DNA of 64,000 nucleotides from Candidatus Altiarchaeales archaeon (GTDB lineage Archaea; Altiarchaeota; Altiarchaeia; IMC4; QMZM01): positions 287 through 64,286 of the forward strand of contig CAVVMY010000015.1 in the NCBI GenBank assembly GCA_963749405.1, read 5' to 3'. The notes beneath the pieces were generated by a model. That model did no database searches. It saw nothing but the letters and a program-made list of their open reading frames with translations, and had not been told where the DNA came from. Shown piece by piece: positions 2,614 through 5,273 of the stretch (positions within the stretch are counted from its first letter, which is position 1; each line of letters begins with the position of its first letter). The position numbers and the translations under genes are program-made.

Positions 2614-5055
2614 ATGTTGGAAATGAAAATCGGAAAAATCTCTCTTGTGTCTCTATGCATAATCGAGCTTTTGACTCTGGTCGGCCTGGTCGTCCCCTTC
2701 GTCTTACAGCATAATCTCTATTCTGGAGACATGCCGGGCCACTATTTTGCAGCCTGGTACGAGCAGAATTTCCTATTCCCCCGCCCCTTCGGATGGAACC
2801 CTTTTTTCTTTGCTGGCTACCCGCAAAACCAGTTCTATCCGCCGCTATTCCACTACCTTTCAGCTATTATGGGTTTATTTTTCGGAACTGCGCTCGGATT
2901 CAAACTGCTCATTTCCGCATCTATACTTCTGGCGCCGGTCTCTTTCCAGTACTTCGCGGCGAAATTCGGTTTCAATGATGCGAATTGCGCACTGGTGGTC
3001 TTTTTTATGTGGCTCCTGCTGTTCATCCCTGACGGGCTGCTGGGCGCGAATTATGCTTCGACGTTCAACACCGGCGTTGTTGTGCATATGTTTGCATTGC
3101 CTTTGCTCTTCTTCTATTTTGGGAAAGCCAATGAATCGCTCAAGACCGGAAAATACGTCGCTATAAGCGTCCTATTATCCGTGATAATCCTCAGCCACGT
3201 ATTCATTGGGATCATTTCCGTTATCGTGTTCCTCTCATTTTTAATCGCCCACAACAAAAAGAACGACTTATTTCTCATGTTCAAGCATGGCGCCCTGTCT
3301 TTTCTTCTGATATCCTTCTGGGCAGTTCCCCTGTTATCCAAGATAGGGTATTCCTCTTCTTCGCCTTCACCTGGTTTCAGCCTTCTTATTTTTGTGGTGC
3401 TGCTCTCATGTGCAGTCTTTCTTGTTCTGCGCTATCTGCTGACAGAGACTCCGGGGGAGAGAAAGCCGATACTTTATGCATACTGCATACTTGTGGCATT
3501 GGTTTCCATCGGATACTATCTGCAAACTCATTTCCCGGAAATTGGGTATGCCGCCTATTTTACCCGCCTTCTAATGCCCATAGTCTTGCTCATGCCTGCT
3601 CTGGCAGTAACTGTCTTCCTCAGCCGTCCCAGCCTTCTAAAAGTTTTATTGTCGATACCTCCAATTTTCTGTCTGTCGATTTTACTCACCTTATCATTTC
3701 TTCCAATATTTTACTCTGTTTTTCACATAGACCTCCTGGAGGACTACGCCATAAAGCCGGAAGGGATAAAAAACATGCAGCTGGACTTCGAAAAGCTTGA
3801 CGGCAGGATACTGGACATATCCTACATCGACAAGGTATCAGGGGTGTACTACGTCAACATGATGGTGCCGATGAATACCGGCAACCAGATGATGCAGGGG
3901 CTCTTCGTGGAATCATCAAAGCAGGCCAGGTATGTCTATCAGACAATCCTCGAACTAAACCCGCATACCATGTTCATGAATGTATACCCACTTAATGAAA
4001 CCTCTCCTGAAAACCATGCCAAGTTGCTTCCCTATCAGTTAAGAACATTCAACATAAACTACCTCATAACCAGTGAGGGCATCAATCGTTCGAACATGAT
4101 CACAGACCCGCAGGGGATACATGTCTATAATTATTCCAGAAACTATTATGGGGATGGGGCAACTTTGGGGGACTATGTTTTCGGCATTAAGGAGAAATCT
4201 ATGTGGGATGTGTTTCGGCTGCTGAACTCGACAGATAATTCTTCCAGCATAGTTGCATTGTATTCTCAAGAAGACGGGAATGGGGCCTTGGAGGAGATGA
4301 ATGCGTCATCTAATAGTACGGGCGTGAACTTTTATCTGGGCAATGAGACTGCGACTGTGTACTTGTCTTCTAATTTCCGGAACTGGGAGGCATCCGTAAA
4401 CGGAAAGCTGACACTGTTCTATCCCTCTTATTCTGCCGCTTATCCCCCCATTATGTATTTTAAAGGGAACGGCACCGTGGAATTGCGTTATACCGGCAAT
4501 CCTTTTGATTCCCTGAATGCTACGTTCCTGCATGACGTCCCTGTAGGGTTCCGGAACGAAACTTTTTCATTGTATAAGGTCGGGGATTCAAAGTTGGCGG
4601 AGGTCCTGGACTATGCGCCGTCGGCAGTCTGCAAGAACTGGGACGATGCTACCTGGGACTGGTTTAATTCGGAAAACATTTCAAAGGTGATTGTGCAATC
4701 CTGTGAGCCTTTGCCGTCTTATGCTGGTTTTGGCGATGAGAAACTGGACATAGTCGAGGTCTCAAGGACCGGTGAATACATGAAGTTCATCGTACATTCT
4801 GATAAGCCCGTGCCAGTGTACGTCAAGGTAAGCGACTATCCCAACTGGCGGGCTTATGTGAACGGCGTTCCTGCAAAGATATACCTGGCATCGCCTTACA
4901 TGATGCTCGTCTATGGAAATGGCACGATAGAATTCAGATACGAGCCGGTCTTGTCCGAATACGCGGGAGGAATTATGAGCTGCTTGGGCATCCTATGGGT
5001 TATTCTTTCGTATGTCACGCTCCGAAAAAAGAAAAAATCAAATACTCCGGCCTGA
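2614..5055 (+). CDS. large polytopic membrane protein with C-terminal extracytoplasmic domain and terminal TM; GT-C/YfhO-like putative glycosyltransferase
   Basis: 813 aa. About 12 or more hydrophobic segments fill the first ~370 aa. A soluble sequon-rich (N-x-S/T) domain and a final TM helix with a KKKK tail follow. The family assignment rests on architecture only. Confidence 0.4.
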   Translation: MLEMKIGKISLVSLCIIELLTLVGLVVPFVLQHNLYSGDMPGHYFAAWYEQNFLFPRPFGWNPFFFAGYPQNQFYPPLFHYLSAIMGLFFGTALGFKLLISASILLAPVSFQYFAAKFGFNDANCALVVFFMWLLLFIPDGLLGANYASTFNTGVVVHMFALPLLFFYFGKANESLKTGKYVAISVLLSVIILSHVFIGIISVIVFLSFLIAHNKKNDLFLMFKHGALSFLLISFWAVPLLSKIGYSSSSPSPGFSLLIFVVLLSCAVFLVLRYLLTETPGERKPILYAYCILVALVSIGYYLQTHFPEIGYAAYFTRLLMPIVLLMPALAVTVFLSRPSLLKVLLSIPPIFCLSILLTLSFLPIFYSVFHIDLLEDYAIKPEGIKNMQLDFEKLDGRILDISYIDKVSGVYYVNMMVPMNTGNQMMQGLFVESSKQARYVYQTILELNPHTMFMNVYPLNETSPENHAKLLPYQLRTFNINYLITSEGINRSNMITDPQGIHVYNYSRNYYGDGATLGDYVFGIKEKSMWDVFRLLNSTDNSSSIVALYSQEDGNGALEEMNASSNSTGVNFYLGNETATVYLSSNFRNWEASVNGKLTLFYPSYSAAYPPIMYFKGNGTVELRYTGNPFDSLNATFLHDVPVGFRNETFSLYKVGDSKLAEVLDYAPSAVCKNWDDATWDWFNSENISKVIVQSCEPLPSYAGFGDEKLDIVEVSRTGEYMKFIVHSDKPVPVYVKVSDYPNWRAYVNGVPAKIYLASPYMMLVYGNGTIEFRYEPVLSEYAGGIMSCLGILWVILSYVTLRKKKKSNTPA

Positions 5056-5273
5056 AGGCCGGAGTATGTGCCCAAAGGGCATCCCGTAGGCATATATGCC
5101 CGTAGGTGCATCCAAAGATGCATGTGCCTGGCTGGCATGCATCCTCTTTGGATGCACTTTAGGCACATGCACCCTGCTGGGTGCAAAACCGGCATGATGC
5201 GGCATTCTGTGCCCGTGGGCACATGCCGCTCACGGCATCTGCGGCCTTAAAGGCCGCAGTATTCTGCCGGTTT
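5042..5273. repeat. dense array of about 10 short GC-rich stem-loops between two convergent genes
   Basis: Stems were read directly:
- 5042-5067, ATACTCCGGCC/tgaa/GGCCGGAGTAT
- 5069-5081
- 5089-5100
- 5107-5122, TGCATC/caaa/GATGCA
- 5125-5137
- 5138-5156
- 5168-5185, TGCACCC/tgct/GGGTGCA
- 5209-5222
- 5223-5238, ATGCCG/ctca/CGGCAT
- 5239-5259, CTGCGGCC/ttaaa/GGCCGCAG

There is also a long-range pair, AAACCGGCA 5186-5194 with TGCCGGTTT 5265-5273. Confidence 0.8.

Follow-up and report, generated by a model that had tools for sequence, protein, structure and literature searches.

A 240-nt hairpin array between convergent archaeal genes as a probable non-autonomous PATE-type relative of IS200/IS605 insertion sequences

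Repetitive extragenic palindromes (REP) and bacterial interspersed mosaic elements (BIME) of E. coli and Pseudomonas are 20-40-nt imperfect palindromes with a GTAG-type head, present as hundreds of extragenic units and associated with a single-copy REP-associated tyrosine transposase (RAYT). Insertion sequences (IS) of the IS200/IS605 type such as IS608 and ISDra2 are moved as single strands by the Y1 transposase TnpA through 'peel and paste' transposition (PMC5027513). Palindrome-associated transposable elements (PATEs), defined in Haloquadratum walsbyi and other prokaryotes (PMC3119063, Dyall-Smith et al. 2011), with PATE-like elements also described in Geobacillus (PMC10055086), lack transposase, inverted termini and target duplication, and carry near-terminal palindromes like those of co-resident IS200/IS605 elements. 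They share a short conserved oligonucleotide at the 5' end, and the distance from the end to the palindrome is longer at the 5' than at the 3' end (PMC3119063). Haloarchaeal PATEs include 'terminal-only' versions of about 50 nt, and other small repeats insert into their near-terminal palindromes; the small repeats SMR-A of Haloquadratum, elements of about 110 nt with inverted termini and no known transposase, prefer PATE and IS605 palindromes (PMC3119063). Here we analyzed a 64,000-nt stretch of DNA from a Candidatus Altiarchaeales archaeon (contig CAVVMY010000015.1; hereafter the window), which is archaeal as judged from ribosomal proteins matching the uS3/uS7 euk_arch models and S4e. A 240-nt hairpin-rich block at 5037-5276, between the stops of two convergent genes for proteins of 813 and 633 aa, is most probably a non-autonomous PATE-type element, a transposase-less relative of the IS200/IS605 insertion sequences.

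The first-pass annotation described this spacer as about 10 consecutive hairpins. Seven perfect stems of 6-11 bp with loops of 3-5 nt were found within 5042-5259, and shorter ones (TGCCC/GGGCA at 5069-5081, palindrome GGCATATATGCC at 5089-5100, and TGCC/GGCA at 5125-5137) bring the total to about 10-12, in agreement with that count. When the window was divided into 250-nt bins, the array showed the highest hairpin density, hairpins with perfect stems of at least 6 bp covering 122 of 250 nt compared with 62 in the runner-up bin. Folding was calculated for both strands. As RNA, the minimum free energy was -136.8 kcal/mol (z -9.40) for the plus strand and -138.2 kcal/mol (z -9.64) for the minus strand, that is, a z of about -9.5 on either strand, and folding of the minus strand as DNA gave -85.5 (z -12.6). 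None of 200 shuffles folded as well as the array. The restricted stem vocabulary noted before was also borne out: TGC and GCA each occur 15 times compared with about 4 expected (3.5-fold), and GGCA (8 compared with 1.3) and GCAT (9 compared with 1.2) are enriched 6-7-fold. The excess of GC is real relative to the immediate flanks (0.55-0.61 compared with 0.44-0.50), but its description as far above the surroundings was overstated, coding sequence 1 kb away being equally high. The long-range pair thought to enclose the whole array, AAACCGGCA (5186-5194) with TGCCGGTTT (5265-5273), encloses only 5195-5264, the right-hand third.

The array was found to be not a locus-specific structure but one copy of a dispersed repeat family. 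For the search, a pattern with 20 specified bases, GGCCNNAGTATNNNGCNNGTTTGTAAT, was built from two window copies (5239-5285 and 51110-51155). It matched three loci in Altiarchaeales-type metagenome-assembled genomes (MAGs), labelled Candidatus Altiarchaeales and Euryarchaeota, and 31 metagenome contigs from sediment, one of them (L011) by chance; no match was obtained in viral contigs. Related copies exist in MAGs, metagenomes and the window itself, in 26 distinct pairs of flanks. In addition, the single DNA run (X1), made up of fragments only, contained a 151-nt contig identical to 5117-5267 and two further small contigs carrying hairpin 1 in different flanks. All true matches share one architecture, running from ATCAAAT to GTTTGTA. 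Two subtypes were recognized. The basic form of type B is 99 nt long and reads ATCAAAT-[hairpin 1]-G-ACTTACAAACCGGCA-CGTTACGGCATTC-AT-[hairpin 2]-TATTC-TGCCGGTTTGTA; type A is about 125 nt long, the middle being replaced by ...ACAAACACGCAAAATGTCAAAATACGCAAAAGGAGGTGTAAGCGCAAGG... The window block belongs to type B and is the longest copy seen (249 nt with padding, compared with at most 216 in the others).

The basic element has a hairpin near each terminus and a long-range stem of 13 bp that covaries, TTACAAACNNGCA/TGCNNGTTTGTAA. Across 13 basic copies these three helices are 94% paired, with compensatory change at 7 positions, and the long-range stem covaries across the subfamilies. The covariation score was 0.152 compared with 0.054 in shuffles, none of 500 shuffles reaching the observed value, and slid controls gave 0.036 at most. 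This covariation was not imposed by the search, because the covarying positions were N in the pattern. The termini ATCAAAT... and ...GTTTGTA are not complementary, and only the subterminal hairpins are alike; terminal inverted repeats are thus absent. A target-site duplication was likewise not detected in the 26 copies: the longest word shared between the two flanks averaged 3.38 nt, compared with 3.54 +/- 0.15 nt for shuffled pairings. A classical MITE (miniature inverted-repeat transposable element) was ruled out on both grounds. The sequence following GTTTGTA is fixed as AT[AG]A in 26 of the 26 distinct copies (TYAT on the minus strand). One copy, L029 (Ga0315288_10341027), is a 45-nt 'terminal-only' form, in which a single hairpin is fused to the left-end tail.

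Good indirect support for insertion came from joining the flanks in silico. At L010 the joined flanks read ...FTPRRKGSVWSK/INKDKAERLIKTGRM... (...WSK/INKDKAERLI...; slashes mark junctions and element ends throughout) and continue in a single frame into the OmdA domain of a YdeI/OmdA-type protein. At L019 the result is a single open frame encoding Glyco_trans_4 and Glycos_transf_1 domains. The L019 copy (Ga0315288_10052387, about 750-850, minus strand) is a basic 99-nt element lying in frame and free of stops within this GT4-family glycosyltransferase gene, where it adds 33 residues to the inter-domain linker. These two joins fix the boundaries to within one A, and those of the window copy accordingly carry a 1-nt A ambiguity at each end. 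A right boundary shifted to GTTTGTAA/T[AG]A was rejected as it breaks the L010 frame; a joint slide of both boundaries by one A is still allowed. For the window copy, the joined flanks read ...CTC CGA AAA AAG AAA AA/A TAG AAA G..., and the 813-aa gene, on this reconstruction, formerly ended LRKKKK-TAG, the element having settled one base ahead of the old TAG. Today the gene ends AAA TCA AAT ACT CCG GCC TGA, the TGA at 5053-5055 lying in the loop of hairpin 1. L018, L022, L029 and L033 have this KSNTPA* tail as well, and L007 has RSNTPA*. The predicted empty site of the junction between the two convergent genes is ...AAGAAAAAATAGAAAG..., with the flanks joined as ...CTCCGAAAAAAGAAAAA/ATAGAAAGATGCGG...

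Two copies of an IS200-like element are present in the window (Table 1). The only differences between them are a single substitution and two 1-nt indels that compensate each other, near the 5' end of tnpA, and about ten codons are consequently read in different frames. The transposase, of 170 aa, belongs to Pfam Y1_Tnp and carries the HVH (HUH-type) and GGYF motifs; it scored 100 bits for NCBIfam transpos_IS200 (cut-off 55) and 35.6 bits for REP_Tyr_transpos, under the cut-off of 80. Its closest relatives include two-gene IS605 forms with tnpA and tnpB (L037-L039, L040). The IS boundaries were fixed from five independent insertions, the relatives being fetched via the transposase. The IS ends read TTTAG / 19 nt + hairpin CTGCGGGC-TTTA-GCCCGCAG + ATGAATTGCGG ... 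hairpin + (T)AGTTCAC /, and the type B element on its minus strand reads TTTAT / TACAAACCGGCAGAATA + CTGCGGCC-TTTA-GGCCGCAG + ATGAATGCCG ... ACTCCGGCC-TTCA-GGCCGGAGT + ATTTGAT /. The minus strand of the window copy, corresponding to the IS top strand, has the same layout: a TCTAT flank, 17 nt followed by hairpin CTGCGGCC..GGCCGCAG, the interior, and hairpin ACTCCGGCC..GGCCGGAGT followed by ATTTGAT.

Against the IS left end, the family-consensus left end scored 46, compared with a maximum of 28 (mean 13.4, sd 2.4) among 2,238 control segments, and the window copy scored 33 (control maximum again 28; about 2,000-2,200 control segments over the two comparisons); against the IS right end, the window copy scored 32-40 (control maximum 30). 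The likeness to IS ends noted in the first-pass annotation is confirmed by formal alignment, with scores above all control segments. Judged from these alignments, the first hairpin of the array is homologous to the right end of the IS and the last hairpin to its left end, both inverted relative to the plus strand of the window. The right-end-like terminus shares a 16-nt identity with the IS right-end hairpin and 23 of 25 positions with the right end of the IS relative L047, the latter identity reaching into the tail. The distance from the end to the palindrome is 17-18 nt on the left and 7-8 nt on the right in the family, compared with 19 nt and 8-10 nt in the IS copies. These observations altogether indicate a previously undescribed PATE family with two subtypes, tied to IS200/IS605 in Altiarchaeales-type archaea.

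Table 1. Positions of the element, its parts and associated features in the window.
Feature	Position	Strand	Remarks
Whole element, expanded type B PATE-like, 240 nt	5037..5276	-	Ends match consensus ATCAAAT...GTTTGTA
Right-end-like terminus	5037..5067	-	Hairpin ATACTCCGGCC-TGAA-GGCCGGAGTAT (5042-5067) and tail ATCAAAT (reverse complement ATTTGAT)
Hot-spot 1 accretion, about 117 nt of TG...CA palindromic modules	5069..5185	.	Basic copies carry only ACTT there
Composite long hairpin	5106..5157	.	13-bp perfect stem GTGCATCCAAAGA/TCTTTGGATGCAC (100% complementary) around TGCA/TGCC palindromes
Core segment	5186..5207	.	Left arm of long-range stem AAACCGGCA (5186-5194) and spacer TGATGCGGCATTC; aligns with ACAAACCGGCACGTTACGGCATTC of the family
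Hot-spot 2 modules, 29 nt	5208..5236	.	TGTGCCC-GT-GGGCACA and TGCCG-CTCA-CGGC(A)
Left-end-like terminus	5239..5276	-	Hairpin CTGCGGCC-TTAAA-GGCCGCAG (5239-5259), spacer TATTC, right arm of stem TGCCGGTTTGTA (5265-5276)
Flanking motif ATAGA (minus strand TCTAT), presumed target-adjacent	5277..5281	-	Holds putative ancestral TAG (5278-5280) of the 813-aa gene
813-aa membrane protein gene	2614..5055	+	Last five codons (SNTPA) and stop from the element
Convergent 633-aa gene	5293..7194	-	Pre-insertion stop would be 12 nt from the stop of the 813-aa gene
Second window member, type A, 123 nt	51024..51146	-	Between the stop of gene 50224..51042 and the hisD start codon at 51147
IS200-like element, copy a, 733 bp	18162..18894	+	Y1 transposase 18337-18849; candidate source of transposase in trans
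IS200-like element, copy b, 733 bp	37104..37836	+	Near-identical to copy a

The difference in length between the window copy and the basic form resides in two hot spots. In basic copies nothing is found between GTATG and ACTTACAAAC (site 1), nor between GGCATTC and ATCTGCGG (site 2). In many copies, both sites contain palindromes opening with TG and closing with CA, such as TGCCCTTCGGGCA, TGTCCCTCAAAGGGACA and TGCCCGAGGCA, often joined by CATG. A given module type can be found at either site and in either orientation, and homologous modules differ by compensatory changes in their stems. Such modules, amounting to 24-56 nt, were found at site 1 of L007, L014, L018, L022 and L025, and homologous modules at site 2 (GGCATTC^ATCTGCGG) of L006, L007, L009, L014, L018, L022, L023, L027 and L028. 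The window copy carries about 140 nt extra in total. Its site 1 holds TGCCCAAAGGGCA, the palindrome GGCATATATGCC between CCCGTAGG repeats and the composite hairpin, as well as part of the first module copied in inverted orientation, and TGCACCC-TGCT-GGGTGCA. Double-hairpin inserts of about 52 nt were found in the loops of end hairpins in L007/L017/L024, L014 and L030, and the CCAAAGA...TCTTTGG arms of the composite hairpin resemble the second hairpin of these inserts; this shared motif was seen only within the family members L007, L014 and L030 and the window copy. Comparison of the IS605 relatives L037 and L040 revealed in L037 a 55-nt double hairpin right after the left-end hairpin, where site 2 would lie in the small elements. 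Within the array, the inverted repeats I1, I4 (the stem of the composite hairpin) and I6 would fit module insertion and local inverted duplication alike. A role of the CATG junctions as a restriction-modification site was considered and dropped, as the window shows no avoidance of CATG (observed/expected 1.01).

In about 200 kb examined, the modules were located mainly inside family elements and at IS left ends, with two exceptions. One is the pair ATGCC-ACGG-GGCAT and ATGCCC-ATCG-GGGCAT at 9822-9875, intergenic upstream of the gene at 9931 and outside recognized elements; it is the only other small pair of like hairpins seen in the window. The other is a 50-nt double hairpin, TACAACGGATTGCTATGCAATCCGTGTACATGGAGGCATAGCCTCCATTG, in the YdeI/OmdA-type coding sequence of L010/L012, about 100 nt upstream of the element. 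This insert, which shifts the reading frame, is missing from L015, the two states forming a natural filled/empty pair. From the difference between L010 and L015, small palindromic inserts were demonstrably gained in the community.

The most probable mechanism would be movement as single-stranded DNA by 'peel and paste', with the minus strand as the active strand. The Y1 transposase of the IS200-like elements may be supplied in trans, or another family member may be the partner. The extra 140 nt or so could have arisen by nested insertion or duplication of TG...CA palindromes and double-hairpin mini-elements at the two hot spots. As a by-product, both convergent transcripts would acquire a long structured 3' region.

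Several points weigh against this interpretation. The flank motif is TYAT-like in the family and TTTAG in the IS, and the left spacer is 17-18 nt compared with 19 nt; the resident transposase therefore may not be the mover of the small elements. A natural empty site was not recovered by exact-protein look-ups, which returned filled or cut sites or nothing. For the 813-aa protein, the only other contig ends inside hairpin 1; the three contigs with the L005 PorA are all filled or cut; and for the 633-aa protein and the L021 TrpA no record was obtained. The best homologue of the 813-aa protein has 32% identity, too little for a comparison of synteny at the locus. Only two copies were seen in the 64 kb of the window. 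Finally, the reading frame of upstream genes places the old stop in the flank motif for 6 of about 10 genes (6:3:1 over the three frames, one third being expected), a bias that is suggestive but weak and not significant alone. Four other upstream genes end 1-6 nt before the element. L021 was discarded from the cases with the old stop in the flank, as trpB, in its real frame, already stops 4 nt upstream of the element.

Four candidates had been offered in the first-pass annotation without a choice among them. The non-autonomous MITE/PATE-like derivative of the IS200 element is supported, in its PATE-like form, by family membership, end homology, the lack of target duplication and the restoration of genes in joined flanks, and the other three are improbable as the origin of the block. 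Were the array a BIME-like cluster, every hairpin would be a REP in its own right, dispersed and kept by a domesticated RAYT. The many short GC-rich palindromes of alternating orientation, their position at gene ends, the presence of GTAG at two places (5086-5089 and 5102-5105) and the Y1-type transposase in the genome are in line with such a cluster. The whole block, however, can be aligned over its full length with a defined element family; its modules of 11-19 nt, starting with TG and ending with CA, are devoid of a conserved GTAG-type head, GTAG being found only twice; the modules were seen, in the roughly 200 kb covered, mainly in family elements and at IS left ends; and the transposase, of IS200 type by its score, is encoded by two mobile IS copies, not by a single-copy gene. 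We regard this origin as highly improbable, and the likeness to REP as a loose functional analogy.

Equally improbable is that the cluster evolved at this locus to terminate transcription of the convergent genes from both sides or to stabilize their RNA. Homologous copies are located at unrelated loci in several genomes, some of them divergent intergenic, intra-operon or even intra-coding, and the host is an archaeon, in which hairpin-dependent termination is, to our knowledge, not an established mechanism. The location between convergent genes and the very strong folding would suit a terminator, as would the arrangement on the minus strand, where the first hairpin, with its 11-bp stem, is followed by TTTGATTTTTT with the T-run TTGATTTTTT, but this T-run belongs to the flank and not to the element. 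Termination or stabilization of RNA may still be a side effect at this locus. As for a structured non-coding or cis-regulatory RNA, with helices under selection at the RNA level, the compensatory changes maintaining the three helices would be expected, and type A relatives flush with start codons and carrying GGAGGTG would also agree. Covariation is equally expected, however, for DNA hairpins recognized by a transposase, and the window copy is without a downstream gene on its strand. In a permissive Rfam scan of the block, no family reached the gathering threshold and only weak look-alikes of miRNA hairpins were detected, the best match being 25.4 bits compared with the threshold of 49.5 (mir-17, a generic hairpin). 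A look-up of RNA runs covering this stretch listed none. Mismatches in the helices were C.A in 8 cases and T.G in 2, an excess that weakly favours pairing on the minus strand. An RNA origin is therefore hardly to be expected.

Beyond the PATE-type reading, a wider proposal may be made, which we consider rather unlikely when its two parts are taken jointly: the 11-19-nt TG...CA palindromes and the double hairpins of about 50 nt would be the smallest mobile units, and the elements would act as portable gene boundaries. In the hierarchical part, such units may be inserted at set positions beside or inside PATE and IS hairpins by a Y1 transposase or by another route, and the elements would grow as palindromes enter palindromes. 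In the gene-boundary part, the cassettes would give the upstream gene a new stop codon in a hairpin loop, and type A would bring its GGAGGTG ribosome-binding site beside the downstream ATG by means of the hairpin. Read in reverse complement, the flank motif (ATAAA, ATGAA or ATAGA) falls on stop codons and on ATGA overlaps of stop and start, and many copies therefore lie exactly at gene boundaries.

The type A copies were identified at 51024-51146 of the window and in L002-L005, L008, L017, L020, L021, L026, L032 and L034. They end flush with an ATG, which in 11 of 12 cases opens a long open reading frame (ORF) of 84-429 codons (hisD, porA, trpA, DUF447 and others). GGAGGTG is located about 50 nt upstream of this ATG, and the intervening hairpin would draw both close together. 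Type B copies are without flush ATG and GGAGGTG. Within operons, type A copies separate porD from porA (L005, three samples) and trpB from trpA (L021).

An ArgZ-like gene (18875..20098, minus strand) takes its last six codons and its stop, which lies in the hairpin loop, from the right end of IS copy a (18867-18894), and this parallels the small element on the 813-aa gene. The joined flanks suggest that the ArgZ-like gene originally ended three codons past the junction. Also in the neighbourhood, a HepT-like ribonuclease (toxin) gene (17801..18139) abuts IS copy a, and an IS110-family transposase gene (1185..2216) is located 400 nt upstream of the 813-aa gene. A single ORF touches the small element itself (4911..5222, minus strand, 103 aa), and the greater part of it lies across the 813-aa gene.

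Identification of the element accounts for the puzzling 240-bp structured spacer and corrects the C-terminus of the 813-aa gene product, the last five residues and the stop of which derive from a mobile element. More generally, such elements lead to spurious extensions of called genes at the N- and C-terminal ends and break metagenome assemblies. Short-read contigs were observed to break inside elements (L001, L043 and the X1 contigs), ending in hairpin 1 or within the array, and copy numbers based on assemblies will therefore be underestimates. The family belongs to a poorly sampled archaeal lineage, for which richness in insertion sequences has been reported in an earlier survey (PMC13343696). 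The accretion of very small palindromes at hot spots and the placement exactly at gene boundaries are the features to be noted; if the former is a truly active process, the family would provide a simple system for studying the growth of hairpin-rich DNA.

Compared with known systems, the family agrees with PATEs in being too short for a transposase (240 nt; 99 nt in the basic form), in lacking inverted termini and target duplication, in carrying IS200/IS605-like near-terminal palindromes and a conserved 4-5-nt motif at the left end, in the longer distance on the left than on the right, and in its dispersal among unrelated flanks. L029 corresponds to the terminal-only form, and the loop inserts of L007, L014, L017 and L030 to the repeats found in PATE palindromes. 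It differs from haloarchaeal PATEs in its Altiarchaeales-type lineage, without sequence relationship, and from the PATEs described so far in its 99-nt basic form with a covarying 13-bp long-range stem joining the two end hairpins, in the 11-19-nt TG...CA palindromes stacked at fixed internal hot spots, and in a flank motif holding stop or start codons. With IS200/IS605 it shares a subterminal hairpin at each end, a flank motif on the 5' side of the left end, the lack of duplication and the end homology to the window IS copies, whereas the transposase gene is absent, the motif is TYAT-like in place of TTTAG, and the left spacer is shorter by 1-2 nt. REP/BIME systems are alike in their short palindrome clusters at gene ends and the tie to the Y1/HUH enzyme family, and unlike in that here neither a conserved tetranucleotide head nor RAYT is present and the cluster lies inside a bounded mobile element. 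As with SMR-A, small repeats are found preferentially inside PATEs and IS605 ends; the inserts described here, however, are double hairpins of about 50 nt or palindromes of 11-19 nt, and their hot spots lie beside the hairpins as well as in the loops.

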